Assembly (NCBI GenBank): GCA_964581365.1
Contig: CAZOOF010000003.1
Coordinates: forward strand, 28,042 to 92,041
Length of the DNA: 64,000 nt
Source of the DNA: an uncultured Chromatiales bacterium
GTDB taxonomy: Bacteria; Pseudomonadota; Gammaproteobacteria; SZUA-140
Reading direction: 5' to 3'
Position numbers and translations under genes: made by a program. The first letter of the stretch is position 1. Every line of letters starts with the position of its first letter. Under the pieces are notes generated by a model. That model made no database searches and was not told the origin of the DNA. It saw only the letters and a list, made by a program, of their open reading frames with translations. Below, piece after piece: positions 10,481 to 51,318 of this stretch.

Positions 10481-10505
10481 GGCCGCCTCGTGACCGGACC
10501 CTGCC

Positions 10506-34023: not shown

Positions 34024-34106
34024 CTGAACTGCCGTCTCGTTCGCGGTCATCCCGATGATTTACGGTGGACCCAGCGCGAGGCCCCGTCGCTCAGGCGACA
34101 GGAAGA

Positions 34107-34135
34107 TTGACGGCCTTTAATCACCTACGTATCAT
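34107..34135 (+). promoter_or_regulatory. Sigma70 promoter for cytochrome c4
   Basis: TTGACG(34107-34112)-17 nt-TATCAT(34130-34135). Confidence 0.65.
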
Positions 34136-34187
34136 GTGCCATTTGGCGCTGGGCGTACATAATAATGGTTATATTGAGAGGGATCCA

Positions 34188-35045: not shown

Positions 35046-35100
35046 ATTATGAATCATGCGCTTATTTGCATGTTAGCGCCAAGTGCGAGATAATCCGGGC

Positions 35101-35697
35101 ATGTCTGGACGACAGTCGCTCAAGCAGGGAGAGAAGATTCTTTTCGGCATCGCGATCGTGTTTATCGCCTTTGCCGTGATCGCTTACCTGGCTCTTGAAG
35201 CCTATCGCTTGAGTGTCGGAGGGCAGGTCTTCGAGGCCACCACGCACTTCACTCTGTCCGAAGAAGGGCATCGCGGTTCGGAAATCTTCCGTGCGAACCG
35301 CTGTACCTCATGTCATCGCGCGATGCGCAACGGCACCAATATGGGTCTTTCCCTCGACGGGATCGGTTCCCGCCGTACTCAGCAGTGGATCTACGATTTT
35401 CTCCGCGACCCTGAGGCCACTTACGGTGCGCCGACTTTCGATCATGGCTATCCGCCGAAGGAGGCTGCCTACGTTTCGACGCTTCCGCCGGACGATCTGC
35501 GCCTGATCGCTACCTTCCTGTCCGAATTGCGCTCGGATCAGGGTTCATCGTCCGCGCCGATGCCGCCGTCAGGTGATTCCGCTTTCATCGACAACATGCT
35601 CAGGCTGTTTGCTCCGGGCAGCTGGGACGAGAAGTACGGCGATGTCCGTCAACGCCAGCCGGCGCCGGATGAGGCCCGGGAGCCAGCCGAACAGTAG
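35101..35697 (+). CDS. Membrane-anchored monoheme cytochrome c (NorC/CcoO-like fold)
   Basis: N-terminal TM, CTSCH, LDGIGSRRTQQWIYDFLRDP. Confidence 0.85.
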   Translation: MSGRQSLKQGEKILFGIAIVFIAFAVIAYLALEAYRLSVGGQVFEATTHFTLSEEGHRGSEIFRANRCTSCHRAMRNGTNMGLSLDGIGSRRTQQWIYDFLRDPEATYGAPTFDHGYPPKEAAYVSTLPPDDLRLIATFLSELRSDQGSSSAPMPPSGDSAFIDNMLRLFAPGSWDEKYGDVRQRQPAPDEAREPAEQ

Positions 35698-35795: not shown

Positions 35796-36335
35796 ATGAG
35801 CGACCACAATGCGCCCTGGGCGAAAGATGTCGAGTACACCCGCTATACGGTGATGTTCGTTTATGCCTGCATCATCTACGCCATCATCGGATTCTCATGG
35901 GGAGCGCTGATGGGCGGGATTCAGGAGTTCAGGCACTTCGTCGATCATCGGATGCATGGTCAGTTGATCGTGCGCGCCCACACCCACGTCAATCTGCTGG
36001 GCTGGGTGGAAATGGCGATCTTCGGAGCGGTCTACTATTTCATTCCTCGCCTGGTGCGCAGGCCCATCCATAGCATGACCTTGGTGAAGGTTCACTTCTG
36101 GATGCATAACGTCGGACTGGTGGGCATGGTGGTCCTTTTCACCATCGCCGGCGTGATCGGCGGTATGGCGAGCGTGGAGATGAGCCCGGAAGAGGTCGAG
36201 CCGATGGTCAGTCCGCTGCTGGCCACCATGGGTATCTTCGGAACCCTCGTCCTGTTGGCCAACATCATCTGGGGCTATAATATTTTCCGCACCTGTGCAG
36301 GATGGTCGAAAGGCAAGGAGTGGCAGGAACGATGA
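35796..36335 (+). CDS. Stand-alone 4-TM heme-copper oxidase repeat protein (HCOH-type) no. 1
   Basis: RAHTHVNLLGW...YYFIPRLVRRPIHS...VHFW matches helices IX-XII of the CcoN in this window (VAHAHLALLGF...FHFW). Confidence 0.8.
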   Translation: MSDHNAPWAKDVEYTRYTVMFVYACIIYAIIGFSWGALMGGIQEFRHFVDHRMHGQLIVRAHTHVNLLGWVEMAIFGAVYYFIPRLVRRPIHSMTLVKVHFWMHNVGLVGMVVLFTIAGVIGGMASVEMSPEEVEPMVSPLLATMGIFGTLVLLANIIWGYNIFRTCAGWSKGKEWQER

Positions 36336-36844
36336 ACAGGCACTACCGGACGGCTGTTGCGCTTCTCTTCACCACACTGCTCCTCGCTGGTTGTGAGATG
36401 CAGGGCGGCGTCAACGTCGGTTCAATGGCGCCTTCGATTACCACCAAGACCCTCGCGGACGTTGGCGGGGACTTCAGCCTCATCACGACCTACCGCTATC
36501 CCGACGAGCGCATGTACCAGTACTCCCTGGACGATGCGCTGAAATCCGGCAAGACCATCGTGCTGGAGTTCGCGACCCCGGGGCATTGCACGGTCTGCGA
36601 CAAGCAACTGCAAATGCTCAAGGGGCTGATGGATAAGTACGAATCCGAAGTGCTGTTCCTGCATATGGATCAGTACCGCAATCCGGAAGCTTTCACCGCC
36701 TTCAAGGTCATGGGTGATCCCTGGACCTTCGTCATCGACGGAAACAGCGTAGTGCAGTTCAAGCGTGCCGGCAGGGTCCTGTACGATGAACTCGATGCCA
36801 CGCTGGTGCGGGTGCTCCGGCAGCAGCAGACCGGGATGAGCTAA
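36332..36844 (+). CDS. Thioredoxin-fold lipoprotein
   Basis: Lipobox LAGC, CTVC motif, DPWTFVID cis-Pro region. Confidence 0.75.
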   Translation: MNRHYRTAVALLFTTLLLAGCEMQGGVNVGSMAPSITTKTLADVGGDFSLITTYRYPDERMYQYSLDDALKSGKTIVLEFATPGHCTVCDKQLQMLKGLMDKYESEVLFLHMDQYRNPEAFTAFKVMGDPWTFVIDGNSVVQFKRAGRVLYDELDATLVRVLRQQQTGMS

Positions 36845-38387: not shown

Positions 38388-39794
38388 ATGTTCAAGTATC
38401 TGCTGGCCAAAAACGAGGAGATCCCGCGCGGTACAGCGGCGGTCTACTTCGGTGTTTCTTCCATCATCTGGTTCGTGATCGGGACCGGCCTCGGCTCCTT
38501 CAACGCCGCCAAGCTCGCGTTCCCCGACTTCGTCACCGGCTCGGAGCTGTTCTCCTTCGGTCACATGCGCCAGGTCCACGTGATGGCCGTCATCTTCGGC
38601 TGGATCTCGATGGCTTTCGCCATGGCCATGATGTACATCACGCCGGCACTGGGAAATACCAAGCTCTGGTCTGAGAAGCTGGGCGTCTGGAACTGCTTCA
38701 TCTGGAACTTCGGTCTTTCTCTCGGCCTGACCGTGCTGTGGGCCGGAATGAGCTCTGGCCGTGAGTACTCGGACTTCCCGTGGTTCATCGACCTGGTGAT
38801 TCTGTTCGGCATCGTTCTGCCGCTCGGCATCAACGTGTGGATGACCATCATCAAGCGCCGCACCCAGGGTATCTACACCACCAACTGGTTCTTTGCCGCC
38901 GGCTGCTTCATGCTGTTCATCGTGCTTCTGGTCGGTAACCTGCCGGAGTACTTCCAGCTCACGGGTCTGACCGAGGCCTATCTGACCTGGTGGTTCGCGC
39001 ACAACGTGCTTGGACTGTGGATCACCCCGATCGCTGCGGCCATCGCGTACTACACCGTGCCGAAGATCACCGGTAATCCGCTGTACTCGCACCGCATCGG
39101 CCACCTGCACTTCTGGTCCGTGGTGGTGTTCTACTCCACGCCCGCTGCGCATCACCTGATGTCGGCGCCGCTGCCGGAGTGGCTGAAGTCCTTCGCATCG
39201 GTGGAGGGCGTGCTCATTCTGGTGCCGGCCATTGCGTTCGTGTCCAACCTGCTGCTGACCATGACCGGCAAGTGGCGGTACTTCGTCGACAACGTCGAGA
39301 TCAAGTTCACGATTACCGGCGTGCTGATGGCGATCCCGCTGAACATGCAGGGCGGATTCCAGCAGACCCGTGCCATCAACTGGTACATCCATGGTACCGG
39401 CTGGATCGTGGCGCACGCACACCTGGCACTGCTCGGCTTCTCGACCTTCCTCGAGGCTGCCGCCGTGTACTATGGTCTGCAGACGATCCTGCGTCGCAAG
39501 CTCTACTCGCTGGCGCTGGCTAACTTCCACTTCTGGTTCCTGCTGATCGGTTTCACGATCTACTGGATCTCCATGACGATTGCGGGCCTGATCCAGGGTG
39601 CCGGCAAGATCTATGAAGTGCCCTACATCGACGTCGTGATCGCGGAGCATCCGTACATGATCGCCCGTTGGGTTGGCGGCACCATGGTGTTTACCGGAAA
39701 CCTTGTCTGGCTCTACAACATGTGGATGACTGCGCGTGAAGGCACTGTGATCCCCGCGGGCCGTCTGCCGCACGAGATCGCCTACGAGCGCTAG
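38388..39794 (+). CDS. ccoN: C-family (cbb3-type) heme-copper oxidase subunit I, divergent
   Basis: H64, WWFAH205N, Y249-x5-H255H256, H343-x-H345 and REY motifs; 12 TM. Confidence 0.92.
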   Translation: MFKYLLAKNEEIPRGTAAVYFGVSSIIWFVIGTGLGSFNAAKLAFPDFVTGSELFSFGHMRQVHVMAVIFGWISMAFAMAMMYITPALGNTKLWSEKLGVWNCFIWNFGLSLGLTVLWAGMSSGREYSDFPWFIDLVILFGIVLPLGINVWMTIIKRRTQGIYTTNWFFAAGCFMLFIVLLVGNLPEYFQLTGLTEAYLTWWFAHNVLGLWITPIAAAIAYYTVPKITGNPLYSHRIGHLHFWSVVVFYSTPAAHHLMSAPLPEWLKSFASVEGVLILVPAIAFVSNLLLTMTGKWRYFVDNVEIKFTITGVLMAIPLNMQGGFQQTRAINWYIHGTGWIVAHAHLALLGFSTFLEAAAVYYGLQTILRRKLYSLALANFHFWFLLIGFTIYWISMTIAGLIQGAGKIYEVPYIDVVIAEHPYMIARWVGGTMVFTGNLVWLYNMWMTAREGTVIPAGRLPHEIAYER

Positions 39795-39840: not shown

Positions 39841-40791
39841 GTGGCATTCCGTGAATATAAAATAGGTGCGCGACTGTTCGGTGTTGCGCTCGGCGGATCG
39901 ATGATGATCACCATCTACATGCCGAGCCTGGACATCGTTCAGGTGGCGTCGACCGAGATGGGCCTGCGCAAGGGTCTCATGTACGGCCGAGTCGGCGGGT
40001 TCTCGGTCGAAGATCCGTTCCTGCAGGGGGCGGGCAAGCCGGTTACCGTGGTCCTGCGTAAGGATCCGCGGAATGGTGAGCCCATCGATGAGACGTACGC
40101 CTACGTCTACGAAGCGGGCATTCCGTTCACCAGTTCCATCCGTCACCCGCGCATCATGGGTGAAGGCGTGGAGGACCTGAGTCTGCAGCAGGGTCGTATC
40201 GGCGAAGCTGATCAGAATCGGGGCGCTGTGTTCCTGGTGGTCGAAGGCCGCTGGAACGGTGAGCCGACGCACTACATCGAGAACGCGACGGCTACCCGCA
40301 ATTGGACGCCCGAGCTCATCCGCAACGCGGTTAGCGATCAGGACATGCACTATGTCGGCTCCGGCAAGATCATGTTCGTGCGTGAAGGCTGCTGGTGGTG
40401 TCATACGCTCCTCCCGGAGCAGACGCAGGACTGGCAGGCGTTCGGCGCTCCGCCGCGGCTGGGTGACTTCAACAGTGAGTCGCCGACTGCGTTCGGATCC
40501 GACCGCAAGGCGCCCGATCTGCTGCATGTTGCCTCGCGCAACTCCTCACGCGAGTGGATGGTGATGCACTTCTTTAATCCGCGTCTCGTTCAGCCGCACT
40601 CGATCATGCCCCGCTACGACTATCTGTGGGGTGAGGTTGATGCGGATGGCAACCGGATCGATTACAAGAAGTGGCGTGCCGAGTACAGCGAGTACGCCTC
40701 CGGCAAGCGGATCTATCCGCCGGAAGTGCCGGAGCCTGCCGCTGATAGCGACGCCCGCTATCTGATCGACTTCGTGCTGAGCCTCAAATAA
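39841..40791 (+). CDS. ccoO: cbb3-type subunit II with N-terminal periplasmic insertion
   Basis: REGCWWCH, GSDRKAPDL, HFFNPRLVQPHSIMPRY. Confidence 0.88.
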   Translation: MAFREYKIGARLFGVALGGSMMITIYMPSLDIVQVASTEMGLRKGLMYGRVGGFSVEDPFLQGAGKPVTVVLRKDPRNGEPIDETYAYVYEAGIPFTSSIRHPRIMGEGVEDLSLQQGRIGEADQNRGAVFLVVEGRWNGEPTHYIENATATRNWTPELIRNAVSDQDMHYVGSGKIMFVREGCWWCHTLLPEQTQDWQAFGAPPRLGDFNSESPTAFGSDRKAPDLLHVASRNSSREWMVMHFFNPRLVQPHSIMPRYDYLWGEVDADGNRIDYKKWRAEYSEYASGKRIYPPEVPEPAADSDARYLIDFVLSLK

Positions 40792-40807: not shown

Positions 40808-41443
40808 ATGGCCTGGAAATTCGATAACCCGCTCTATAGTCTGACCGATGAGGAGCAGAACGAGAAGGCGAAGGAGCTGTGGGAAAAGGAAGCCCTCGGT
40901 GGAATCACCGAGGACAACAACCGCCTGCCGCGTCCGGTGGTCTGGTTGCTTGCGCTTACCATCGTGAGCGCGTTCCTGATGACGTTCCCTCTCTGGGGGC
41001 AGCGTCCGTCGGCGGCAATCTATGAGGACTACGTCGCGCTGATGGATTCGCCTGAGATTCAGGCGATTCAGCAGGAACAGGGCGATGACGCTGCCATGGC
41101 TGCGATGGTCAAGAAGGTGCGCGACCAGGGCTCGACCTACCAGGGGCTGCTGGATCGTCATCCGCTGTCCATGAATGAGCTGCGTCTCATTCGGGATGAC
41201 ATCATCGAGCTGCAGAACACCCGGGTCGACCTGGAAGAGTACTCGGTTGTGGGTGACCAGGTTCTGCTGGCGAACTTTGAAGGCAACTGGAAGCCGGATG
41301 GGACTCGCGAGCGCAAGCAGCCGTGGTGGGACAAGGGGTACACGATCGACCTGTTTTACGTGACGTACTTCTGTCTGGCGGTGTTGATCGCGGTGAAGCG
41401 TCTGCCGAACTATCGTTGGCAGCCGACGCATCACGGTCACTGA
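40808..41443 (+). CDS. Heme-less CcoP-like subunit
   Basis: GGITEDNNRLPRP resembles the CcoP N-terminal motif; 2 TM; no CxxCH. Confidence 0.7.
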   Translation: MAWKFDNPLYSLTDEEQNEKAKELWEKEALGGITEDNNRLPRPVVWLLALTIVSAFLMTFPLWGQRPSAAIYEDYVALMDSPEIQAIQQEQGDDAAMAAMVKKVRDQGSTYQGLLDRHPLSMNELRLIRDDIIELQNTRVDLEEYSVVGDQVLLANFEGNWKPDGTRERKQPWWDKGYTIDLFYVTYFCLAVLIAVKRLPNYRWQPTHHGH

Positions 41444-41461
41444 TAATCTAGGAGAGAAACC

Positions 41462-41593
41462 ATGATCGATGTCGACAATCCACCGCTCATAGTCCTGATC
41501 CCGATTATCATCGTGTTCGTGGCGCCGTTCATTTACAGCTTCTTCGTCGACAAGTACGACAAAGCTACGCCGCCGCTGCGAGACGACGAGTAA
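41462..41593 (+). CDS. 43-aa single-TM microprotein (CcoQ-like position) MIDVDNPPLIVLIPIIIVFVAPFIYSFFVDKYDKATPPLRDDE
   Basis: RBS AGGAGA 41450-41455; not in ORF track; followed by hairpin and terminator. Confidence 0.75.
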   Translation: MIDVDNPPLIVLIPIIIVFVAPFIYSFFVDKYDKATPPLRDDE

Positions 41594-41602
41594 TTGGCGA
41601 TA

Positions 41603-41632
41603 GTGATGCGGGATCTAACGATCCCGCATCAC
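41603..41632. repeat. Perfect 13-bp-stem inverted repeat
   Basis: GTGATGCGGGATC-taac-GATCCCGCATCAC. Confidence 0.85.
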
Positions 41633-41657
41633 ATTGAGCAGCAGGATGTGAAAGAAT

Positions 41658-41693
41658 AAACGATGCCGTTCGCGAGGGCGGCATCGTTTTTTT
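41658..41693 (+). terminator. Intrinsic terminator of the oxidase core operon
   Basis: AAACGATGCCG...CGGCATCGTTT followed by further Ts. Confidence 0.85.
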
Positions 41694-41729
41694 ACGCGCA
41701 GAGAGCGCTCATACAAGATCATTGCCGAT

Positions 41730-42059
41730 ATGACCCCGACAGATATGTATGAAGAGATTGTTTTTGCACTGATGCGGGCCAGCGAGCTGCTTTTGCCGGT
41801 ACTGCAGCAGAGCAGCGGGCCATCGAGCTACTGGAGCATCGAGGGCATGCAGGGCTATCGCTTCAGCGTCGGCATTTTCGTGTTCATGTTGGCCGGGGTG
41901 ATCGTGTTTGGCGCCATCGTTTACCACTTCTTCATGCACGCCGGACCACGCTCTGGTATCAAGCGGGGCGAGAAGATACTGTTCGCGTGGATCGTCGCCG
42001 GAATGTTTGTGGCGGTAGCTATCGGTGCAGTACAATTGTTGTATGGCCGACTTTTCTAG
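41730..42059 (+). CDS. Hypothetical 2-TM protein
   Basis: Two hydrophobic helices linked by HFFMH...KRGEKIL. Confidence 0.7.
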   Translation: MTPTDMYEEIVFALMRASELLLPVLQQSSGPSSYWSIEGMQGYRFSVGIFVFMLAGVIVFGAIVYHFFMHAGPRSGIKRGEKILFAWIVAGMFVAVAIGAVQLLYGRLF

Positions 42060-42071
42060 CAGGAGGCTGTC

Positions 42072-42353
42072 ATGAACTTTCTGCAATCGTTGCCGGATGG
42101 TTGGACCATCTACGTATGGCTGGTTGCTGGGGCGGCCATCATCTTTGCGGCGATTTACGGTTTGCGCTGGGCGCACCGTAATGAGCAGTTCGACGAGGAC
42201 ATCAAGTATCTGGTGTTCGACGAGAACGACAAGGAGAAGATGAGTCCCGAGGAGTACGCGAAGAGCCGCGAAGTGCTCGAGAAGCAGGTCAAGCGCCGGG
42301 AAGAAATCCGGCGGGAACGAGCGCAGCAAGCGGGCAGGCATGAGGACCGGTGA
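42072..42353 (+). CDS. ccoS: cbb3 oxidase maturation protein CcoS/FixS
   Basis: TM followed by WAHRNEQFDED...LVFDE; RBS AGGAGG. Confidence 0.75.
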   Translation: MNFLQSLPDGWTIYVWLVAGAAIIFAAIYGLRWAHRNEQFDEDIKYLVFDENDKEKMSPEEYAKSREVLEKQVKRREEIRRERAQQAGRHEDR

Positions 42354-42828
42354 AAAAGGGATCCTGCTTGTAATCGCAGTACTGGTAGTCGGCGGGGCGC
42401 TGTGGAGTTTCCAGCGTCAGAGCGAAGCCCCGCCGGAAGACCGCGAGATTCCATTCTACAGCACCGCGTCGGCTGAGCTGCGCCAGGCGGCCGGGGCGAT
42501 CTATCGGCGCGAGAACTGCAAGAGCTGCCACACTCTGTGGACAGTGCGTGATATCATGCAGTCGGTACCGGCGCCAGCGCTGGATGGTATCGGTTCTCTG
42601 CACGACGAACAGTGGTTTTTCGAGTATTTTTCCGCAGGCAACCCACAGCTGATACTGCCTTCACGTCTGAAGGCTGAGTATCAGATGCCATCCTACGCCC
42701 ACCTGCCGGATGACGAGCGGCGCACGCTGGCTGCCTACATGGCGAGCCTTAAAGTCAAAGACTGGTATCTCGACGAGGCCAGAAAGGCAAGGTGCCGCAA
42801 GCTGACAGGGGAGGAGGAATGCCCATGA
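42340..42828 (+). CDS. Membrane-anchored monoheme cytochrome c (NorC/CcoO-like)
   Basis: TM, CKSCH, APALDGIGS...W, MPSY Met ligand. Confidence 0.87.
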   Translation: MRTGEKGILLVIAVLVVGGALWSFQRQSEAPPEDREIPFYSTASAELRQAAGAIYRRENCKSCHTLWTVRDIMQSVPAPALDGIGSLHDEQWFFEYFSAGNPQLILPSRLKAEYQMPSYAHLPDDERRTLAAYMASLKVKDWYLDEARKARCRKLTGEEECP

Positions 42829-43298
42829 GTCCGCAGACCAGACGCAACATCCTGGGAACCATTGCCGTACTTGCCGGCTGTGCCGTGGTCTACGTTGGCG
42901 ACTGGCTGGTCGGCGTGGATCTGGAGTTGTGGTGGGGACTGGCCACCTTTACTCCGATCTGGATGGTCGCAATGTTTGTAGTGCCGCTGATCTCCGGTCT
43001 GGTGTGCGCGATGATCTTCGGTCTGGGCGGAAAGTGGCTGTGTTATTTCCCTCCGCTTATCGTCCGTACCATCAATTACTTTGCCTACGTCTATGAGTTC
43101 AAGGTGCCGCCGCCTGGCGCCGAGCTGCTGTTCTTTCCCTACTGGATCATGTTCGTCATCTTGGTCGTGGAAGCGGCGGCGTTCGGGGGCGTGTTTGGAG
43201 AGATCGTCGTCAAGAAGACGTATGGTCGTCTGCCGCGGGAAATGGTGTACCGCAAGGCAGGTGATCAGTCGGCCGGTTCCGGAGGTCAGGGTGGATGA
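42825..43298 (+). CDS. Hypothetical 4-TM protein (start 42819 or 42825)
   Basis: Hydrophobic; overlapping stop/start junctions with both neighbours. Confidence 0.7.
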   Translation: MSPQTRRNILGTIAVLAGCAVVYVGDWLVGVDLELWWGLATFTPIWMVAMFVVPLISGLVCAMIFGLGGKWLCYFPPLIVRTINYFAYVYEFKVPPPGAELLFFPYWIMFVILVVEAAAFGGVFGEIVVKKTYGRLPREMVYRKAGDQSAGSGGQGG

Positions 43299-44356
43299 CC
43301 TCGACTCGTGCCTTGCCGCGTATAGATGAGGCCATCCGGCGGCGCCGCAAGCGCTACCTGACGGCGACGATTATCACCTGTATTGCTCTTGCCATGGTCG
43401 GTGGGAGCCTGCACATCGTGCAGCTCGGAGCCAAGCGCATGGAGGAGATGCGGGGCAAGGCGAGCTACGATGTCAGTGAGATGCGCTCGCGGATTCGGGC
43501 TGCTGGCGAGGAACTTCATCGTCACCGCCTCCACGAGGAAAGACAGACATTCGTCGAGTCCTATTCGGTGGAGGAGGCCGAGGCACTGCTCACGCCGGAG
43601 CAGTGGGCCGAGCTGGAGACGATGGTGACGATTCCCGCTGGGCCCTTCATCATCGGTACTAACCGGCCACGCAGCGCCGTGCAGGATCAGCCTGAACACC
43701 GGATAAATCTCCCTGCCTTCCGCATCGACACGTATCCGGTAACGAATGCGCAGTATGCCCGCTTTGTCGCGGCCACCGGGCATCGCCCGCCGCTGAACTG
43801 GGATCAGGGCCGGATTCGCCCGGGTACCGAGCTGCATCCGGTCACCATGGTTTCCTGGTATGACGCTAACGCGTATGCCAGCTGGGCCGGGAAGCGTCTG
43901 CCGACGGAAGCTGAGTGGGAAAAGGCCGCGCGAGGACCGGATGGCAAGCGCTGGCCATGGGGTGATCTCATGGATGCATCGCGCCTCAATACCTATTACA
44001 ACGTGGGCCGGACCACCGAGGTGACGCGTTACGTCTCCGGCGCCAGCGAGTACGGTGTCATGGACCTTGCCGGCAACGTCAGTGAGTGGACGAATGACAA
44101 CTTTCGCCCCTATCCCGGCAGCGATGCGCCGCCGGAGGTGTTCGAGGCGAAGATTGCGGTGGCCACAACGCCGCTGGATGAGGCAATGCAAGTTGTGGAT
44201 TTGGTCCCGGTGGACGGCAGCTACAAGGTGCTGCGCGGGGGTTCGTGGAAGAGCGACCCGTTCTCGACCGCTGCCTACCATCGGAATTATTCATGGCCGC
44301 ACTACGCTTCCGACTTCTTCGGGTTCCGGACGGCGGCAGATATCGTTACGGAATGA
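43295..44356 (+). CDS. Membrane-anchored FGE-sulfatase (NirV/pFGE-like) domain protein
   Basis: YPVTNAQY, RLPTEAEWEKAARG, DLAGNVSEW, RGGSW, GFR. Confidence 0.9.
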   Translation: MTSTRALPRIDEAIRRRRKRYLTATIITCIALAMVGGSLHIVQLGAKRMEEMRGKASYDVSEMRSRIRAAGEELHRHRLHEERQTFVESYSVEEAEALLTPEQWAELETMVTIPAGPFIIGTNRPRSAVQDQPEHRINLPAFRIDTYPVTNAQYARFVAATGHRPPLNWDQGRIRPGTELHPVTMVSWYDANAYASWAGKRLPTEAEWEKAARGPDGKRWPWGDLMDASRLNTYYNVGRTTEVTRYVSGASEYGVMDLAGNVSEWTNDNFRPYPGSDAPPEVFEAKIAVATTPLDEAMQVVDLVPVDGSYKVLRGGSWKSDPFSTAAYHRNYSWPHYASDFFGFRTAADIVTE

Positions 44357-44601
44357 TGAACGCTACGACTCTACGCAAGCTCTGGCTGTACTGTACGCTG
44401 GCCTTGCTGCCGCTGATGCCGGGGACCTCCCTTGCGTTCGACAGTTACAGGTACCTGCATGTCACCATCGACACGATCTGGTACATATTCGTGTTCCTGC
44501 TGCTCATTCTGCTGGTTCCATTCATCCTCATGGCAATCCTTTACTGGTGGACTCTGCGCCAGCGCAAGCTGGACAGCGAGCACTCCGAACCGAAACCCTG
44601 A
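44353..44601 (+). CDS. Small protein with signal peptide and one TM
   Basis: MMNATT...SLA/FDSYRY then a 25-aa hydrophobic helix; ATGA overlap. Confidence 0.65.
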   Translation: MMNATTLRKLWLYCTLALLPLMPGTSLAFDSYRYLHVTIDTIWYIFVFLLLILLVPFILMAILYWWTLRQRKLDSEHSEPKP

Positions 44602-44617
44602 TCAGGGGCAGCACCAC

Positions 44618-44995
44618 GTGCACGCACGCTTTCACACCGCTGTCTGCGCCTTTCTGATGCTGCTGGTGGCAGCGCTGATGCTGGCGCCGGCCGGCGCCCG
44701 GGCGGCGGCGGCCGAACAGGGCACATCTTCCGATACCCAGGTGATTCAGGCATTTTCCGAGGCAATGCGTGAGAGTGCGCAACGCGCCGAAATCACCGAG
44801 CAGCGCAAACACGCCATTCTGTTTCTGATGGGCGTCGTGCTGCTGGTCTGCATGCTTGGCACCGCTGGCCTGGGTGTGGCTATGGCAATCTTTGGCAAGA
44901 AGGTGTTTGTGGCGCACACGATCTTTGCCGGACTCAGCGTTACTCTCGCCCTGGCGCATGCCGTGGTCGCAGTCGTCTGGTTCTGGCCGTTCTGA
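44618..44995 (+). CDS. Small membrane protein with H-x13-H helix
   Basis: GTG start, signal peptide, 2 TM, HTIFAGLSVTLALAH. Confidence 0.7.
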   Translation: MHARFHTAVCAFLMLLVAALMLAPAGARAAAAEQGTSSDTQVIQAFSEAMRESAQRAEITEQRKHAILFLMGVVLLVCMLGTAGLGVAMAIFGKKVFVAHTIFAGLSVTLALAHAVVAVVWFWPF

Positions 44996-45063
44996 CCATC
45001 GCTCTGGCGACCCCGGGATCGCCCGCAAATGACGCGATCATCCACCGATCAGGCGGCTCTTCG

Positions 45064-47688
45064 ATGAGCCGCCGTTTCCTTTATCTGCTTTACGCCTGTT
45101 CGGGAGCGACCAGCCTCGCCTTCGAGGTGTTGTGGGCGCGCATGCTTTCCCTGCAGTTCGGCGTCAGTATCTTCGGTGTCGTGGTGACCATCGCCGCCTT
45201 CATGGCCGGTCTGGGCCTCGGCTCGCTGTTCGGTCTGCGGCTGGGGCGGACCAGCCGCAGACCTCTGGTCGCTTTTGCCTGTCTGGAGGGGGGCATTGCC
45301 ATCTATGCGCTGGCATTGCCGTCGCTGCTGTCGGGTGCCGAATCTTTCCTGTTGCAAGTGGCTGCCGGGGCGCCACTACAGACCTGGTATCTGTTTCAGT
45401 CCGTCGCGCTGCTGGCGCTGATTCTGCTGCCGGCTGTGGCGATGGGCGCGGGCTTCCCCCTGGTGCTCAAGGCGCTCGGCGCGCGCCCGCATGTCCTCGG
45501 CACCCTGTATGGTGTCAACGCATTCGGTGCCGCTCTGGGCGCTTTGCTGCCCCTGTGGCTGCTGCCCCGGTTTGGTTGGATGGCGGCAGTCGAAGCGGTA
45601 GCTGTGCTCGGTCTGCTGGTGGGTACATTCGCTGGCGCGCTCGCCTGGCGCGGCGAGTTTCGTGTGATTCCCGAACCGGGGATGAGGGCGGTCGATCGGC
45701 AGCGGCCAGCTCTGGTCTCACTGGTGGCCTACGCGGTCATTGGCGCCGCTGCCATCATGCTCGAGGTGGCCTGGACCCGCCTGTACGGGATGGTTCTGCT
45801 GCGCACCGAGTATGTGATGGCGGTGATTCTCGCCGTCTATCTCCTCGGTATCGGCGGCGGCAGTCTGCTTGCGCGCTGGCTGCGAGATTCGCGCTGGCTG
45901 GCCGTGTTCCCTCTGGCGGCCGCATTGCTGGCTTTACCCAGCCTGTGGCTCTTGCCGGCGATCTCGACCTGGTCGCAGGGTCAGGATTTCGGTTCTCTAT
46001 GGACGGCGCTGCTGGCTGAAGGGCTGGTGTTGGCGGCAGTGACTTTGCCTGTGACACTGCTGCTTGGCGCCTGGCTGCCGCTGCTCGCCCGGCGCTACGG
46101 CGACGAGGGATCATTCGGCCCGCTGTTCTACGGCGTGAACTCGGTCGGTTCGGCGCTGGGGGGCCTGCTCGCCGGTTTCGTGTTGATTCCATTGCTCGGG
46201 ACACCGGCAACCCTGGTGGCGGCGGCGCTCGCGCTTTTCGTTGCCGGTTGCGTCTGGGCTCCGTCCCCTCGTATCTGGCTGGCCTTCCCCCTGCTGCTCG
46301 TCGCGTTCTGGCCGGTGACGGATTTCCCTCCGGTTGCCAGGCTGGTGCCCGGGATGCACGCCGCCAGTGAGGACCTGTACCGCTATGAGGACGCGATGGC
46401 GATCACGCACGTGATCGAGCAGGCCGATGGGCAGCGTCTGCTGCTGAGCGATCTGCAGCGTATGGATGCCTCCAGCGAGCAGGCTGCGGTCGAACTGCAG
46501 AAGAACCAGGCGCGACTGCCGCTGATGCTGCATCCCCGTGCGGAATCGATCCTGTTTCTGGGGCTGGGGACGGGTATATCGGCTGCCGGCGCGCTCGAGT
46601 TTCCGGAGCTGCAGAAGCGCGCTGCGGTCGAGCTTTCGCTCGGTTCGATTCGCGCCGCGCGGGACTGGTTCGCTCCGGTCAATGAGGGGGTCATCGGACA
46701 GATGACCGTGGTGCGCGATGATGCCCGCCGTTATCTCATGGCGGATGAGGCTCAATGGGATGTCATCGTCGGTGACGTGTTTCATCCCGATCTGGTCGGA
46801 CGCAGCGCGCTGCTGTCCGTTCAGCAGTTCGAGCGTGCACGCTCACGTCTGGCACCGCAGGGCATTTTCGTGCAATGGCTGGCTCTGAACCAGTTCGACC
46901 ACGATTCCCTGCAGGTGGTGCTGCGCAGTTTTTCCCGGGTGTTCCCGGACGGCGTGATGTTCATGGACGGGTTTCGCATCGCGATGGTCGGCGGCCTGGG
47001 GGGAAGGGACCCGGTTCGCTGGATGGATTCGCTCCGCGCCCGCGACGAGGCTCTGGAGGCTGGCGAAGGAATCTGGACCTGGCTCGGGCGCTATTGGGGC
47101 ACGATTCCGCCGGATGACGGCGGACCGGTGCAGGATGAGTGGCGTCCCCATATCGAGTTCCGTCTGCCACAAGCGCGCTATGGCGGTGGCCTGGGACTCG
47201 ATCAGTTGCTCGATTGGTTGCTGCGCATCCGTCCTGAGTCGTCGCGCGCCGCCAGCGAGCTTGGCGTGACGCCCGCCGACCGCGAACGTTTCGAGGCCTG
47301 CTATACAGCCTCGGATCTGGCACTGAAAGCCTGGCTTGCGGGACTGAGGGGCGATGTGCCCCAGTCGCGGCGTCTGCTGCGCTTTGCCTGGGAAGCGAAC
47401 CCGGAGGATCGCTGGACAGGTTTCTCGCTGGCGGACAATATTCTTGCGGAACTGCAGGAATCACCGCGGGGGCTGGAGGACAGGCGTCGCGTACTGGAGG
47501 CCGTGCTTTCCATCAGGCCGGATCATGCCGATACCCTGCGCGCGCTGTGGCATCTCGACGCCGCCCTGGGGCGCCATGAGAGCGCTGCGGCCTGGTTCGA
47601 GCGCCTTGCCGAAGTCAGTCCGCTCGATCGCGAGGTGACGGCAGCGCGGGCTGCTGAGCACGGTGCGGCAACGCCGCCTCCAAAGTGA
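45064..47688 (+). CDS. Fused polytopic membrane domain plus spermidine-synthase-like SAM-binding domain
   Basis: Duplicated TM motifs (EVLWAR/EVAWTR; YGVNAFG/YGVNSVG), LFLGLGTGI, DARRYL, DVIVGDVFHP. Confidence 0.85.
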   Translation: MSRRFLYLLYACSGATSLAFEVLWARMLSLQFGVSIFGVVVTIAAFMAGLGLGSLFGLRLGRTSRRPLVAFACLEGGIAIYALALPSLLSGAESFLLQVAAGAPLQTWYLFQSVALLALILLPAVAMGAGFPLVLKALGARPHVLGTLYGVNAFGAALGALLPLWLLPRFGWMAAVEAVAVLGLLVGTFAGALAWRGEFRVIPEPGMRAVDRQRPALVSLVAYAVIGAAAIMLEVAWTRLYGMVLLRTEYVMAVILAVYLLGIGGGSLLARWLRDSRWLAVFPLAAALLALPSLWLLPAISTWSQGQDFGSLWTALLAEGLVLAAVTLPVTLLLGAWLPLLARRYGDEGSFGPLFYGVNSVGSALGGLLAGFVLIPLLGTPATLVAAALALFVAGCVWAPSPRIWLAFPLLLVAFWPVTDFPPVARLVPGMHAASEDLYRYEDAMAITHVIEQADGQRLLLSDLQRMDASSEQAAVELQKNQARLPLMLHPRAESILFLGLGTGISAAGALEFPELQKRAAVELSLGSIRAARDWFAPVNEGVIGQMTVVRDDARRYLMADEAQWDVIVGDVFHPDLVGRSALLSVQQFERARSRLAPQGIFVQWLALNQFDHDSLQVVLRSFSRVFPDGVMFMDGFRIAMVGGLGGRDPVRWMDSLRARDEALEAGEGIWTWLGRYWGTIPPDDGGPVQDEWRPHIEFRLPQARYGGGLGLDQLLDWLLRIRPESSRAASELGVTPADRERFEACYTASDLALKAWLAGLRGDVPQSRRLLRFAWEANPEDRWTGFSLADNILAELQESPRGLEDRRRVLEAVLSIRPDHADTLRALWHLDAALGRHESAAAWFERLAEVSPLDREVTAARAAEHGAATPPPK

Positions 47689-47720
47689 AAAATAGCCTGC
47701 TACATGCTAGAATTCGCAAT

Positions 47721-49049
47721 ATGTACCACTCCAAGGCACTGTCCAGTATCCCGGTCGTAGTGACCGCGGACGCAAGGGCCGGACGGAGATTGCGCGGAAG
47801 GCGTCGTGCGGTACAGCTCGGCACCCTCCTGCTCGCGATGCTCATTCCGCTGTCCGGTCTATTCCGTATCGATCCGGTGGCTGGCGCCTTCGTGGTGCTC
47901 GACCGTCAGATCTGGTTCGCCGATTTCTACATCGTCGTCGGCCTGTGGATGGCTGTTTCCAGTGTGCTGGTCCTGACCTATTCCTTGGTGGGAACCGCAT
48001 TCTGCGGCTGGTCCTGCCCGCAGAATACGCTGGCGGAGTGGGCCAACCGCATGACGACACGGCTGCTGGGGAAGCGTGCCCAAATCAATCTCGACGGGGA
48101 ACCGATCAAGGTTTCCGCGGGCAAGGACAAGGCGCTCAACTGGGTGATTCTCGGCAGCCTGTTCCTGCTCGCCGCGATGGTGATCGCCATCATTCCGATG
48201 CTGTATTTCTACACGCCCGAGCTGATCTGGCGCTTCATCACTTTCCAGCACGACGCCCGACTGGCTGATTCCCTGCACTGGATCTACATGATCTTCGTGC
48301 TGGTGATGTTCGTGAACATCGCCTTCGTGCGCCATTTCTGGTGCCGCTTCATGTGTGTGTACCGGGTCTGGCAGCATACCTTCAAGACGCGCGAAACGCT
48401 GCATATCGCCCATGACAAGAGTCAGCCCGACGAGTGCGCGCGCTGCAACTTCTGTGAAACCTCGTGTTTCATCGGCATCGATCCGCGTGAAACGGTGGTC
48501 TATGATGCCTGTATCAATTGCGGCGATTGCATTACCGCGTGCAGTTCGATTCGCGGTGCGCGCAAGACCGGCAACAGCCTGCTGCGATTCGAATTCGGGG
48601 AGCGCAGCGAAGAGGCGGACAGACAGCAGGATCGCGGCCGCCACAGTAACGTCGGTTCCGTGATGAAGCGCGCTCCCTGGGCGACGGCGCTGACCGTCTT
48701 TGGTCTGGTTCTGTTCGCCTGGGGCATCATCACCTATGATCCCGTCCATCACACGGTTTACCGTGCCGAGTCGGTGCAGGGCGGGCAGATCAACGATTAT
48801 CGCGTCAACGTCGCGAACAAGCTCTATCGGCCCATGAGTCTGACCGTGAGCTTGGAGGGCCTGCCGGACGGGGCGTATCGACTGGCGTCTGGCGTGGTTG
48901 ATTTTACCGAAGCCGGTCGGCAGGACGTCCGTCTGGAAATCGCCAATTCCCTGTCCCCCGGACTGTATCCGTTCCTGGTGCATGTCGATTCCGAGGACGG
49001 CAAGCGGCGCACGTTCCGCGTCCATCATTTGGTCCAGGAGGGTGCATGA
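47721..49049 (+). CDS. ccoG: CcoG/FixG-like 4Fe-4S membrane protein
   Basis: CGWSCPQ, WCRFMC, CARCNFCETSC, CINCGDCITAC; C-terminal Ig-like domain. Confidence 0.82.
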   Translation: MYHSKALSSIPVVVTADARAGRRLRGRRRAVQLGTLLLAMLIPLSGLFRIDPVAGAFVVLDRQIWFADFYIVVGLWMAVSSVLVLTYSLVGTAFCGWSCPQNTLAEWANRMTTRLLGKRAQINLDGEPIKVSAGKDKALNWVILGSLFLLAAMVIAIIPMLYFYTPELIWRFITFQHDARLADSLHWIYMIFVLVMFVNIAFVRHFWCRFMCVYRVWQHTFKTRETLHIAHDKSQPDECARCNFCETSCFIGIDPRETVVYDACINCGDCITACSSIRGARKTGNSLLRFEFGERSEEADRQQDRGRHSNVGSVMKRAPWATALTVFGLVLFAWGIITYDPVHHTVYRAESVQGGQINDYRVNVANKLYRPMSLTVSLEGLPDGAYRLASGVVDFTEAGRQDVRLEIANSLSPGLYPFLVHVDSEDGKRRTFRVHHLVQEGA

Positions 49050-49507
49050 GTTCGGACAAGTCTACGCAGGAAGCAAAGGGCAAGGATACGCGCCCGCTGG
49101 ATCCGGTAGAGTCAGAGTGGGGTCAAGTCTCGCCGGACCATTACGGTTATGCCTCCGAGGAGGAGCGGCTGGCGAAGCGCGGCCTCGAGGACTGGGAGCT
49201 GGTCGATCGGATCTCCGAGTCACAACGCGGTGTGCCGGTGTGGTTCATTGCGGTGATCATCATGGTGCTGCTGGTTGCCATCGGTCTCAGTTTCCCGTTC
49301 TGGGGAGACCGGCCGGGCTACGAGCGCGAATGGATCAACTGGGGTTTTGGTGCCGCAATCGTCTATCTGCTGATCTTCGGCACTTTCGTCTATTTCATGG
49401 TGCAGCTGTACGGTTCGCGCTGGGCAGGGCGCCTGGACTCCGACCCAGACAAGAGCGACGAAAAGAACGCGACGTCCGAAAGGAAGGATGCCGGCGACGC
49501 TCCATGA
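49046..49507 (+). CDS. 2-TM paralogue of the heme-less CcoP-like subunit
   Basis: ISESQRGVP..TM..LSFPFWGDRP versus ITEDNNRLP..TM..MTFPLWGQRP in 40808-41443. Confidence 0.7.
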   Translation: MSSDKSTQEAKGKDTRPLDPVESEWGQVSPDHYGYASEEERLAKRGLEDWELVDRISESQRGVPVWFIAVIIMVLLVAIGLSFPFWGDRPGYEREWINWGFGAAIVYLLIFGTFVYFMVQLYGSRWAGRLDSDPDKSDEKNATSERKDAGDAP

Positions 49508-49824
49508 TCCGTGCTGTCGTAGTCGCTGCTCTGCTGCTGTTGATGGCAGGATGCTCGGGAGATTCCGCTCCCACATCCTCCGCGCCCGCGGCTTCGTCCG
49601 CAGACAAGTCCTCGCGTAATATAAACCGGACCTATCTGCATTATTGCAGTGGCTGCCACGGTGCGCCGCGTCCGGGTCAACACACAGCGCGGGAATGGCC
49701 CAGCATCGTCGCTCGCATGCAGCAGCGTCGGATCAGCGCCCGGCTCGGTCCGATTCCGCCGCAGGAACTGCGCGAGATTCTCGATTATCTCCAGGAGAAT
49801 TCGGCGGGCGGTCCGCTGCAATGA
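49504..49824 (+). CDS. Small monoheme cytochrome c lipoprotein
   Basis: Lipobox MAGC, Ser-rich linker, CSGCH, WPSIVARM. Confidence 0.85.
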   Translation: MIRAVVVAALLLLMAGCSGDSAPTSSAPAASSADKSSRNINRTYLHYCSGCHGAPRPGQHTAREWPSIVARMQQRRISARLGPIPPQELREILDYLQENSAGGPLQ

Positions 49825-50219
49825 GAGGCGATATGTTCAGAGTTCTGGTTTTCCTCGTCTCCGGCCTGATGCTGCTCACCGCCTGTACGGACGGGAAGGA
49901 GCATGCCCAGCTGGAACCGCAGCACTGGGAAGATATGGTCGTCGCCGTGGAGTTCCGTCCCGTGCCCTTGCGTCCCGGCATGACTGAATTCATGGTGATT
50001 GCGACCCGAGTCGACCGCACCAGGGCGGACGACATGATCGTCGCCCTGCGCAGCGATCCGGGCGCTTCATGGCAGCAGGCGATCCAGGATGGCAAGACGG
50101 GCGTCTATCGCCGGGCAGTACCGCTGCGTGAGGGCGAGCAGATTCTGTATGTCGAGCTCCGGCGCGGTCTGGAGCGGAAGGTGCTCGAGTATCCGGTGCG
50201 GGTAGGCCCAAGTCGCTAG
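49821..50219 (+). CDS. Lipoprotein, possibly FixH/YtkA-like
   Basis: Lipobox LTAC; beta-strand pattern ending G-x-Y...L-x-x-G. Confidence 0.6.
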   Translation: MRGDMFRVLVFLVSGLMLLTACTDGKEHAQLEPQHWEDMVVAVEFRPVPLRPGMTEFMVIATRVDRTRADDMIVALRSDPGASWQQAIQDGKTGVYRRAVPLREGEQILYVELRRGLERKVLEYPVRVGPSR

Positions 50220-50231: not shown

Positions 50232-50756
50232 TCAGGCCTCATTGCCGGAAGGTCGCCGGCGCTTTGCCAGCGTCCTGCTCTGCCGCCAATGGCGAAGGAG
50301 CAGAATCTTTTCTCCCCCCCGCGCTTCGGCGCAGCGCGAACAGGTCAGATGACCGAGCAGGAGCTCGCGAGGCATCTTGCCGGCATCGAGCAGACGACTC
50401 TGGATATCTCGCACTACCGGCCGCAGGCTGCCAAGGTTTCCCTGATGGAGCCAGGCGTAAACCTGATAGGGGCGGGGGAGCCAGCCGACCAGGTGCGAAG
50501 GTGACTGGGTATTCTCCAGCAGGCGAATGAGGGTGCCGCGGAACATTCCGGTACGCACCAAGGCCAGCCCCGGCCATTTCTCCTTCAGTCCGAGGCGATC
50601 GATGTTGGCCTGTTGCCGATGCAACTGCGCGTCATACCCGATCGGCATGTGCAGGAGCATCGGAACCTGTACCCGATGGACACAATGTCCACCGAGATCA
50701 ACGTCCTGCGCATGCCAATCAGGCCAGGTCGACGGGCATCCGCATTCCAGGATCAT
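50232..50756 (-). CDS. Conserved hypothetical protein with CxC and CxxC motifs
   Basis: ECGCP at the N-terminus and TCSRC near the C-terminus; ATGA overlap with the upstream gene. Confidence 0.7.
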   Translation of the reverse strand: MILECGCPSTWPDWHAQDVDLGGHCVHRVQVPMLLHMPIGYDAQLHRQQANIDRLGLKEKWPGLALVRTGMFRGTLIRLLENTQSPSHLVGWLPRPYQVYAWLHQGNLGSLRPVVRDIQSRLLDAGKMPRELLLGHLTCSRCAEARGGEKILLLRHWRQSRTLAKRRRPSGNEA

Positions 50757-51271
50757 GCCTTTCGCGAGTAAACCGTTCGCGCCGTCATGAATACGTTGGC
50801 GAAGAAGATCCAGAAGCCCATACCCATTGCCGTCGAGATGGTGGCGATCAGGGGGCGATAGTAGCGGTGAATCTCGTAGATGGCATCCGTCTCACCCTGC
50901 AGCAGCAGGCGGCCTTCAGTGATGCCGAAAATCATGAGCGTGGAATAAAAACCGGCCACGCCGAGCGCGGTCCACCAGAACGAGTGATCCACCAGCCGCA
51001 TGGACCAGATCGGACGCTTGGAGATGGTGGCAAACAGGTAGTAGGTGACCGCCATGCACAAGAGTACTACCCCGCCCACCACATTGATATGGGCATGGGC
51101 GAGTGGGTCGATCATGTGTCCGGGACCACCGTACGGGCTGCCGATCGAATCCAGCCACGCCCGCACTGGCGGGATTACCTGGATGACGCCATGAACCGTG
51201 CCGATGAAGAAGAATGTGGCCGAACCTACTAGAAATTTCAGTAGCTTACGCAGATCCTGTTCTGCTGACAT
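50753..51271 (-). CDS. Stand-alone 4-TM heme-copper oxidase repeat protein (HCOH-type) no. 2
   Basis: LAHAHINVVGG...YYLFATISKRPIWS...HSFWW. Confidence 0.8.
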   Translation of the reverse strand: MSAEQDLRKLLKFLVGSATFFFIGTVHGVIQVIPPVRAWLDSIGSPYGGPGHMIDPLAHAHINVVGGVVLLCMAVTYYLFATISKRPIWSMRLVDHSFWWTALGVAGFYSTLMIFGITEGRLLLQGETDAIYEIHRYYRPLIATISTAMGMGFWIFFANVFMTARTVYSRKA

Positions 51272-51318
51272 ATCCTGCCCCGATGGCGCTGGCACAAGGC
51301 GCGCGGGTTGTCTGGCTG

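Follow-up and report, generated by a model that had tools for sequence, protein, structure and literature searches.

Textbook cbb3 oxidases consist of CcoN, CcoO and CcoP, with the diheme CcoP subunit taking in the electrons, and the N-terminus of CcoP is thought to be part of the proton-entry site. The locus analysed here raises the question of what takes the place of CcoP in a bacterium in which a genome-wide profile scan finds no canonical CcoP. The DNA stems from an uncultured Chromatiales bacterium (SZUA-140; assembly GCA_964581365.1, contig CAZOOF010000003.1, positions 28,042-92,041), and the whole stretch of 64,000 nt is referred to as the window. Two of its genes, here called A and B, belong to a divergent cbb3-type oxidase cluster found in iron and electrode oxidisers (Table 1), and the heme-less arrangement that they represent is shared by at least 170 genomes, counted at species level, of iron, nitrite and electrode oxidisers. 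Of three COX1 matches genome-wide, CcoN from this cluster alone is a full-length subunit I of a heme-copper oxidase; it scores 220 bits against TIGR00780, under the cut-off of 583.

An identical gene block in identical order has been described from Ca. Tenderia electrophaga and from iron oxidisers of fresh water as the conserved “cbb3-1/cbb3-2” region of 26-30 genes (bioRxiv 10.1101/2022.05.06.490989). By the published gene order, A is the counterpart of ALP51731.1, which follows CcoO, and B that of ALP51740.1, which follows CcoG; neither gene has a name or a domain assigned there (10.1101/2022.05.06.490989). While the block itself is already published, the assignments of A and B appear to be new, as the CcoP_N homology, the paralogy and the coupling of B to the CcoG-like gene are absent from that preprint.

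Table 1. Features of the oxidase cluster in window coordinates, with the evidence for each
Feature	Position	Strand	Evidence
Divergent CcoN	38388..39794	+	Pfam COX1 8.8e-77
CcoO-like monoheme subunit, N-terminal extension	39841..40791	+	FixO 1.8e-16
A, 211 aa, two TM helices and ~100-aa periplasmic insert	40808..41443	+	ORF, family, FixP_N, synteny
A residues 22-68, homologous to FixP_N/CcoP_N and B	40871..41011	+	hhalign alignments
A residues 68-172, periplasmic insert missing from B	41009..41323	+	AF2, conservation
A residues 177-197, TM2, after W174-D-K-G177-Y178	41336..41398	+	hydropathy; AF2 helix 178-197
TM-anchored monoheme cytochrome c	42340..42828	+	Pfam Cytochrom_C 1.5e-7
CcoG-like membrane polyferredoxin	47685..49049	+	TIGR02745 1.4e-29, below cut-off
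B, 153 aa, putative truncated A paralogue, TM hairpin and conserved cytoplasmic N-segment	49046..49507	+	ORF, family, synteny
B residues 25-90	49118..49315	+	aligned to A 11-68, 92-94% probability
B residues 100-121, TM2, after W96-x-x-W99-G100	49343..49408	+	AF2 helix 99-123
Monoheme cytochrome c lipoprotein	49504..49824	+	start overlaps B stop
132-aa lipoprotein	49821..50219	+	in 78/80 B loci
Mini-HCO no. 2, four TM helices, HxH motif	50753..51295	-	COX1 positions 307-405, E 3.2e-9

Shared architecture of A and B

Both open reading frames, which a preliminary description had picked out as paralogues with a common arrangement of motifs and helices, proved to be real and to have that arrangement. 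In A, the elements I33-x-E35-x5-P41, a TM helix (~43-63), F60-PLWGQRP-67, W174-x2-G177-Y178 and a second TM helix (~177-197) follow one another, and their counterparts in B are I56-x-E58-x5-P64, a TM helix (~64-83), F83-PFWGDRP-90, W96-x3-G100 and a TM helix (~100-121); the spacing between Glu and Pro, given previously as four residues, is five in both proteins. Each family is strongly conserved and annotated only as “hypothetical”, with 1800 clusters for A and 828 for B, yet merely 51 B representatives at 50% identity. The N-terminal module of A (residues 22-68) includes W25, E28, I33-x-E35, N37, P41, TM1 and FPLWGQRP, and W25, E28, E35, N37, P41 and the core P61-L62-W63-G64-x-R66-P67 are invariant in 81/81 sequences. 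The matching part of B (residues 25-90) is made up of the cytoplasmic segment GYASxEERxAKRGLEDWELV, I56-x-E58, P64, TM1 and FPFWGDRP; its Glu58 position is acidic in just 74 of 81 sequences and has been lost in some divergent members, and the loop 84-99 shows a mean top-residue frequency of 0.85.

The relationship between the two proteins was apparent from a single BLASTP comparison (E 1e-6) and from hhalign with 81-sequence profiles (score 48.8, probability 92%, E 5.6e-7), for which reversed-profile controls reached scores of 14.7-16.4 (E 0.13-0.23). When residues 70-166 of A were removed in silico, 87 columns including both TM helices could be aligned (score 60.7, E 1.2e-9), with TM2 of B collinear with TM2 of A. 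When each family HMM was run against the six-frame ORFs of the genome, 30,064 in all (unfiltered hmmsearch --max), A and B retrieved each other as the top non-self match (E 0.0012 and 0.026; runners-up 5.1 and 0.21), a cross-detection that was not obtained with another HMMER profile search of the genome, while an exhaustive HMMER search with the B profile gave 51 representative clusters and no bridge to A or CcoP. On the strength of these alignments, A and B are probably paralogues that have the CcoP membrane-anchor module in common, both without heme c domains.

The most obvious difference between the two is the periplasmic insert of A, put at about 110 aa in the preliminary description and found here to be about 100-110 aa long. 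Within it H118-P119, N156, F157, G159 and R169-x-Q171-P172 are kept in at least 97% of sequences, and the AF2 model of residues 71-170 is largely helical with two short strands (pLDDT ~72-89), with no Foldseek or PDB match for the insert. The complete models have pLDDT values of 69.7 (A) and 68.9 (B), and Foldseek searches with both returned nothing at E <= 0.001. The single Cys of A, C189, is kept in 71/81 sequences and H208 is invariant; B contains no Cys. A may bind heme or a metal non-covalently through H118, H208 or C189.

A heme-less protein in the ccoP slot

Comparison of A with 17 canonical CcoP sequences by hhalign gave a score of 51.2 (91%, E 1e-6), against 22.5-23.2 (E 0.02-0.027) for reversed controls, in a register that pairs WD..L.E.NNPLP.WW with WE.E..GGI.EDNNRLP. 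The Pfam domain FixP_N (PF14715, gathering cut-off 24.9 bits) was found in 27/27 A members (best 1.5e-5); A of the window itself scored 21.6 bits by hmmscan and 24.8 bits in the genome scan, or 25.4 together with its neighbours. A has the same cytoplasmic W-(D/E)...(I/L)-x-E-x-N-N-x-L-P segment as CcoP/FixP (TIGR00782; PF14715; 3mk7 chain C), and in both a TM helix and, at the periplasmic face, a Pro-Gly turn come next. It also shares the position after ccoN-ccoO: the order ccoN-ccoO-A is seen in 73/73 loci, and in the window A starts 16 nt after the end of the CcoO-like gene. In mirror-tree comparisons, no pair co-varied more strongly than A and CcoO, which ranked first in one locus set (partial r 0.75) and shared first place in a second (0.47).

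For B, the profile evidence is of another kind. The hhalign score against CcoP was 28.5, with reversed controls at 24.6-26.4; deep profiles restored the correct register but only at reversed-control score, and the addition of divergent B members made the alignment unstable and led to wrong registers. FixP_N gave weak matches in 5/26 B members (best E 0.038). The claim of a direct homology between B and CcoP_N was therefore dropped, and the link of B to CcoP, as judged from the profiles, is transitive through A only. The term “CcoP-like”, originally applied to both proteins, is supported for A and, for B, solely by way of A.

Both proteins differ from CcoP/FixP in lacking heme c domains. As the preliminary description had stated for the two proteins of the window, CxxCH is absent, and this extends to the species-level homologues (0/81 for A and 0/81 for B, 0/162 altogether). 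The score against TIGR00782, a family defined by two CxxCH cytochrome c domains, neither of which is present here, was 15.5 bits with a cut-off of 179.95. A further differs by its unrelated ~100-aa periplasmic domain and a second, C-terminal TM helix, and B is a mere hairpin whose gene follows a ccoG-like gene. PDB profile searches with A and B returned no CcoP and no meaningful match. Neither protein matches the single-TM CcoQ/FixQ type (~50-70 aa) at E up to 1, both having two TM helices.

The invariant E35 of A aligns with Glu49 of P. stutzeri CcoP (numbering checked on 3mk7_C), a residue to which Buschmann et al. 2010 and Ahn et al. 2014 are reported to ascribe the role of channel entrance. 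In the CcoN of the window, S240 and Y317, which we take to be proton-pathway residues of cbb3 CcoN, are replaced by G238 and A315 (alignment to 3mk7_A), so the Glu of A may not serve as it does in P. stutzeri.

The gene neighbourhood of B

Contrary to A, B is never adjacent to ccoNO and does not occupy the ccoP slot. Its gene lies directly 3' of a CcoG-like gene in 80/80 loci, and in the window, where this is the only CcoG-family gene of the genome, the genes for the CcoG-like protein, B, the cytochrome c lipoprotein and the 132-aa lipoprotein are each linked to the next by an ATGA overlap of stop and start. The cytochrome c lipoprotein gene is present in 56/80 B loci, with a homologue in L020. 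The 132-aa lipoprotein possibly has a YtkA/FixH-like fold; the YtkA signal is weak and comes from one homologue (E 0.083), and a Pfam scan of the lipoprotein did not detect FixH. Mirror-tree values for B and the CcoG-like protein were inconsistent (0.07 in one locus set, 0.40 in the other).

Mini-HCO no. 2, which is homologous to approximately TM9-12 of CcoN, is encoded by a gene that converges on the B module and is found within 6 kb 3' of B in 60/66 loci. Where the cluster is split, B keeps both the CcoG-like gene and mini-HCO no. 2 as neighbours.

CcoG is a copper-handling factor of the cupric-reductase family, and CcoH, encoded after ccoG in ccoGHIS, is an assembly factor that stays attached close to TM9 of CcoN and the TM helix of CcoP. 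Directly after a ccoG-type gene, the ccoH position is here taken by B and the lipoprotein that comes next, and B resembles CcoH/FixH (PF05751) in being a small membrane protein with a plausible CcoN contact. It differs from CcoH in having two TM helices, nearly no periplasmic domain and no FixH similarity (no Pfam match). A genome-wide search found no FixH/CcoH either, the top FixH score (E 0.26) lying at another place than B.

Possible roles of A and B

A CcoP-slot protein without heme, together with a short copy that is always found with CcoG, indicates that this oxidase is probably assembled and supplied with electrons differently from the textbook enzyme. The reading to which we give somewhat more credence than doubt is that A serves as the third, structural subunit in the place of CcoP, though without heme, and that B is a truncated paralogue partnered with the CcoG-like module. 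The cytoplasmic segment and TM1 of A would pack on CcoN at the site of CcoP_N, with Glu35 matching Glu49 of CcoP, and the novel periplasmic domain and TM2 would stand in for the two heme domains of CcoP. Electrons would then reach the CcoO heme from separately encoded cytochromes c. Such an outsourcing of electron entry, already proposed in the preliminary description, fits with the four separate c-type cytochrome genes of the cluster, among which the TM-anchored monoheme cytochrome c, encoded 3' of A in 72/73 loci, is a candidate for the outsourced heme. B, in turn, would represent A minus its periplasmic insert, in a separate, translationally coupled module beside mini-HCO no. 2, and would most likely be a small membrane protein that partners the CcoG-like protein. 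From the operon slot that is CcoH's in ccoGHIS, its CcoP_N-like hairpin could attach the CcoG-like module either to CcoN or to the mini unit that resembles CcoN.

Should A be a true subunit, the organism's sole terminal heme-copper oxidase would have retained the CcoP anchor with both hemes gone, and the structural and proton-entry role of CcoP_N would be separable from the role in electron entry. Electrons from iron oxidation would have to use other, cluster-encoded cytochromes. The cbb3-1/cbb3-2 region corresponds to the cbb3 clusters termed “distal” by Ducluzeau et al. 2008, and the “two-subunit distal cbb3” would then really be a three-subunit enzyme. Through B, a hairpin of CcoP_N type is linked with the CcoG cupric-reductase family and with the mini-oxidase units, and this offers a handle for tests of the assembly and use of those units.

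B could be either such a docking adaptor or a subunit of a mini-oxidase complex. For the short paralogue the preliminary description had named a placeholder during assembly and a P subunit of the mini complex; as B is found beside the CcoG-like gene and near mini-HCO no. 2, away from ccoNO, either may apply. We regard it as possible, if doubtful, that B is a stoichiometric “P-like” subunit of a separate complex with mini-HCO no. 2, the CcoG-like polyferredoxin and the two lipoproteins, which might serve as a small redox complex of oxidase origin or as a conduit for electrons across the membrane. In that case the contact of B with the mini unit would resemble that of CcoP_N with TM8/9 of CcoN. 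In solved supercomplexes the CcoP TM helix lies beside TMH8/9 of CcoN, and CcoH beside TMH9 (PMC7876108); TM9 is included in the stretch to which the mini units correspond. Besides the proximity of the two genes and the very strong conservation of the B loop, all 32 B-positive genomes of the order carry mini-HCO no. 2, and genome G077 encodes the module of CcoG-like protein, B, cytochrome c and lipoprotein together with a mini-HCO, with no A and no full HCO detected. However, G077 is only one MAG, its completeness unknown, and its mini-HCO is located away from the module, 22/66 loci of mini-HCO no. 2 have no B nearby, and the family of mini-HCO no. 2 is about twice as widespread (425 species matches vs 203 for B). 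The further step, in which B and the four putative partners named above make up an independent oxidase-derived redox complex whose hairpin binds a free TM9-12 unit in the manner of CcoP, seems to us unlikely. Were such a complex to exist, modular sub-oxidase assemblies would have a living example in it, and in iron and electrode oxidisers it might carry electrons across the membrane between cytochrome c on the periplasmic side and iron-sulfur clusters in the cytoplasm.

CcoP1 and CcoP2 exchange in pseudomonads, and B might by analogy be an alternative third subunit of the same CcoNO core, replacing A under some conditions. B is collinear with the membrane part of A including the cytoplasmic segment, A and B are both present in 30/36 genomes of the order (both are missing in three), and in one data set B and CcoN diverge in a correlated manner (partial r 0.47). 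Against this, the consistent translational coupling of B to the CcoG-like gene and never to ccoNO, its retention of that neighbour in split clusters, and the occurrence of a B-like gene in G077 make an exchange of isoforms quite improbable.

Finally, it is hardly credible that the resemblance between A, B and CcoP_N is convergent, produced by generic TM composition and a short motif in proteins of unrelated roles: although the aligned stretch is short and dominated by one TM helix, B scores against CcoP at control level and no CcoP was retrieved from the PDB, the reversed controls are far lower for both A-B and A-CcoP, the match extends to cytoplasmic residues outside the membrane and to a second TM helix, A and B are each other's top match genome-wide, and A is consistently located in the ccoP slot.

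A 626-aa open frame in a relative (genome G041), which had looked like a natural fusion of the CcoG-like protein with B, was rejected as a run of N joining two contigs. Divergent B-like genes located 3' of CcoG-like genes are found in other lineages, too.

Probable homology of proteins A and B to each other and to CcoP

The preliminary description had presented protein A (211 amino acids) and protein B (153 amino acids) as heme-less, CcoP-like paralogs sharing an FPxWGxRP motif. Both are real genes with ~1800 (A) and ~828 (B) cluster-level homologs, all labeled "hypothetical protein" and mostly from uncultured Gammaproteobacteria. The features described for the pair, namely a TM helix, FP(L/F)WG(Q/D)RP, W-x2/3-G and a second TM helix, are present, except that the spacing in the leading motif is I-x-E-x5-P and not x4. 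As described, A carries ~100-110 residues more than B in the periplasmic segment between the two helices, and CxxCH is missing from both proteins, as it is from all 81 + 81 species-level homologs drawn from GTDB genomes.

The resemblance of A to B showed in a direct BLASTP comparison (E 1e-6) and in scans of the whole six-frame ORF set of the genome (30,064 ORFs), where the HMM of each family picked out the other as best non-self match (E 0.0012 and 0.026; next-best ORFs E 5.1 and 0.21), and was borne out by profile-profile alignment (score 48.8, 92%, E 5.6e-7; reversed-profile controls 14.7-16.4). Removal of residues 70-166 of A in silico gave an alignment with B of 87 columns (score 60.7, E 1.2e-9) that reaches through the pre-TM2 motif and TM2 as well; because it then extends over both helices, the architecture of A corresponds to that of B plus a periplasmic insert. 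On these sequence comparisons, the A/B similarity is more than chance.

The proposed relationship to the CcoP N-terminal domain (CcoP_N, or FixP_N) held for A and could not be reproduced directly for B. Against a set of 17 canonical CcoP sequences, all taken from genomes within the same class, the A profile scored 51.2 (probability 91%, E 1e-6; reversed controls 22.5-23.2), in a register pairing W-D-x-x-L-x-E-x-N-N-P-L-P-x-W-W of CcoP with W-E-x-E-x-L-G-G-I-x-E-D-N-N-R-L-P of A; the TM helix comes next, and then the turn Y-P-G (CcoP) or F-P-L-W-G (A). Pfam FixP_N matches 27/27 sampled A members (best 1.5e-5), with the window's own A scoring 21.6 bits where the cut-off is 24.9. B aligns with canonical CcoP in the same register at a score (28.5) equal to its reversed controls (24.6-26.4), so that its CcoP_N ancestry rests on homology to A. 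Glu35 of A, which is invariant (81/81), stands opposite Glu49 of Pseudomonas stutzeri CcoP in the alignment (numbering verified on PDB 3mk7 chain C), and the equivalent Glu58 of B is acidic in 74/81. Glu49 has reportedly been proposed as the point where protons enter the single channel. Taken together, we regard the homologies as very probably real.

Gene cluster and its conservation

Both genes belong to a single large respiratory cluster that runs along the + strand at 34-51.3 kb of the window. A preprint on Ca. Tenderia electrophaga and iron oxidizers (bioRxiv 10.1101/2022.05.06.490989) describes the same block as a conserved region, cbb3-1/cbb3-2, in which the genes in the A and B positions are unnamed, and the iron-oxidizer literature treats it as "distal cbb3" (PMC8788666, PMC10734462). 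In the literature searched, no statement was found on CcoP_N homology, A-B paralogy or strict CcoG-B coupling.

Features of the respiratory cluster (window coordinates)
Feature	Position	Strand	Source
Diheme cytochrome c	34065-34958	+	Pfam/NCBIfam
Monoheme cytochrome c	35083-35697	+	Pfam/NCBIfam
"Mini" heme-copper-oxidase unit, four-helix	35781-36335	+	Pfam/NCBIfam
Thioredoxin-like lipoprotein	36302-36844	+	Pfam/NCBIfam
Divergent CcoN	38388-39794	+	Pfam/NCBIfam
CcoO-like monoheme subunit	39841-40791	+	Pfam/NCBIfam
Protein A	40808-41443	+	
FixS-like small protein, 93 aa	42072-42353	+	Weak FixS/CcoS match, Pfam E 0.0018
TM-anchored monoheme cytochrome c	42340-42828	+	Pfam/NCBIfam
Membrane protein, 168 aa	42792-43298		
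FGE-fold protein	43295-44356	+	Pfam/NCBIfam
Membrane-fused spermidine-synthase-like protein	45064-47688	+	Pfam/NCBIfam
CcoG-like polyferredoxin	47685-49049	+	Pfam/NCBIfam
Protein B	49046-49507	+	
Cytochrome c lipoprotein	49504-49824	+	Pfam/NCBIfam
Second lipoprotein	49821-50219	+	
Cys-rich protein	50232-50756	-	
Second mini unit (no. 2)	50753-51295	-	Pfam/NCBIfam

Four-base GTGA/ATGA start-stop overlaps chain five consecutive genes, from the spermidine-synthase-like gene through the CcoG-like gene and B to the two lipoproteins (47685-50219), which suggests that the entire operon tail is translationally coupled. A scan of the 2.17 Mb genome (94.6% complete) found this CcoN as the one full-length heme-copper oxidase subunit I, alongside the two mini units, which are homologous to ~TM9-12 of CcoN; it returned a single CcoG-family gene and neither a canonical CcoP nor a FixH/CcoH. 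The FixS-like protein probably serves this oxidase as its CcoS-type maturation factor. In the CcoO-like subunit ~170 residues separate the N-terminal TM helix from the FixO heme domain, a much longer stretch than canonical CcoO has there, and the FixO match is confined to residues 174-265.

Among 80 A-centered loci from Gammaproteobacteria, Gallionellaceae, Ferrovaceae and Zetaproteobacteria, 73 had enough upstream flank for gene order to be counted; ccoN-ccoO-A was found in all 73, and the FixS-like protein and the TM-anchored cytochrome each lay downstream of A in 72. Directly upstream of B stood a CcoG-like gene in 80/80 B-centered loci, the second lipoprotein followed in 78/80, and A was located ~8 kb upstream in 46/52. 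Split clusters are broken between the spermidine-synthase-like and CcoG-like genes, B remaining with the latter and with mini unit no. 2. Across 36 genomes of the window's order, A occurs in 31 and B in 32 (both in 30, neither in 3); the three mismatched genomes are 66-89% complete.

Structural context and proposed roles

AF2 models of A (69.7; periplasmic domain ~72-89) and B (68.9) are of moderate confidence and contain the predicted helices, and no structural relatives of either were found in the PDB. Across 81 species, A conserves H118-P119 in the periplasmic domain (81/81), Cys189 in TM2 (71/81) and H208 in the His-rich C-terminal tail (81/81); H118, Cys189 and H208 may serve as ligands of a metal or of a non-covalently bound cofactor. 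Compared with P. stutzeri CcoN (3mk7_A), the divergent CcoN keeps T215, Y223, H243 and the cross-link Y251, while S240 is replaced by Gly, Y317 by Ala and E323 by Gln, so that the lower proton path may differ from the model enzyme or be rewired. In the solved bc1-cbb3 supercomplex, TMH8/9 of CcoN adjoins the CcoP TM helix and TMH9 adjoins CcoH (PMC7876108).

In a mirror-tree analysis, a crude distance-matrix correlation on small samples from two locus sets, no pair co-varied more strongly than A-CcoO, which ranked first in one set (partial r 0.75) and shared first place in the other (0.47). B correlated with the CcoG-like protein at 0.07 and 0.40 and with CcoN at 0.47, a result we take as uninformative. 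The same crude matrices outlined two co-varying groups: CcoO, A, the FixS-like protein and mini unit no. 2; and monoheme cytochrome c162, the spermidine-synthase-like protein, a lipoprotein, FGE and the CcoG-like protein.

We suggest that A is likely a subunit at the CcoP site. It would then be a heme-less CcoP equivalent, the third subunit of this "distal"-type cbb3 oxidase, in which the anchor, and perhaps the proton-entry residue too, is retained, with electrons delivered by separate cytochromes encoded in the cluster. The main alternative would make B a structural component of a complex with mini unit no. 2, which lies within 6 kb of B in 60/66 B-centered loci and is present in 32/32 B-positive genomes of the order; 22/66 mini unit no. 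2 loci (L187-L266) have no B nearby. We consider it moderately likely that B and the CcoG-like protein act together. B is a truncated A paralog committed to the CcoG-like module, and in the role we favor it would partner the CcoG-like protein in the membrane or act as its docking adaptor, taking the operon position of the CcoH that is missing here. The combined reading, with A as heme-less third subunit and B as CcoG-like-module paralog, we place slightly on the probable side.

The CcoG-like/B module in other lineages

Divergent B-like proteins of other lineages are likewise encoded directly after CcoG-like genes, and in one lineage a four-gene module (CcoG-like, B, cytochrome c lipoprotein, lipoprotein) is preserved without oxidase genes in its vicinity. 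In the genome of that lineage, G077, canonical CcoG, CcoG-like, B-like, cytochrome c lipoprotein and lipoprotein genes stand in a row (L020-L022, L024). Neither A nor a full heme-copper oxidase was found there, a mini unit only, which as a single MAG constitutes weak evidence; this mini unit adjoins two large unknown proteins of 492 and 824 aa. At locus L019, the product of 10209-10706, a membrane protein of 165 aa encoded close to a divergent B-like gene, looks by eye like the window's 168-aa membrane protein; if this likeness is real, further cluster components accompany the module in other lineages. The 22 B-less mini unit no. 2 loci also have no CcoG-like gene nearby, the Cys-rich protein often still following the mini unit, and this mini family is about twice as widespread as B among species genomes (425 versus 203 pattern-confirmed matches).
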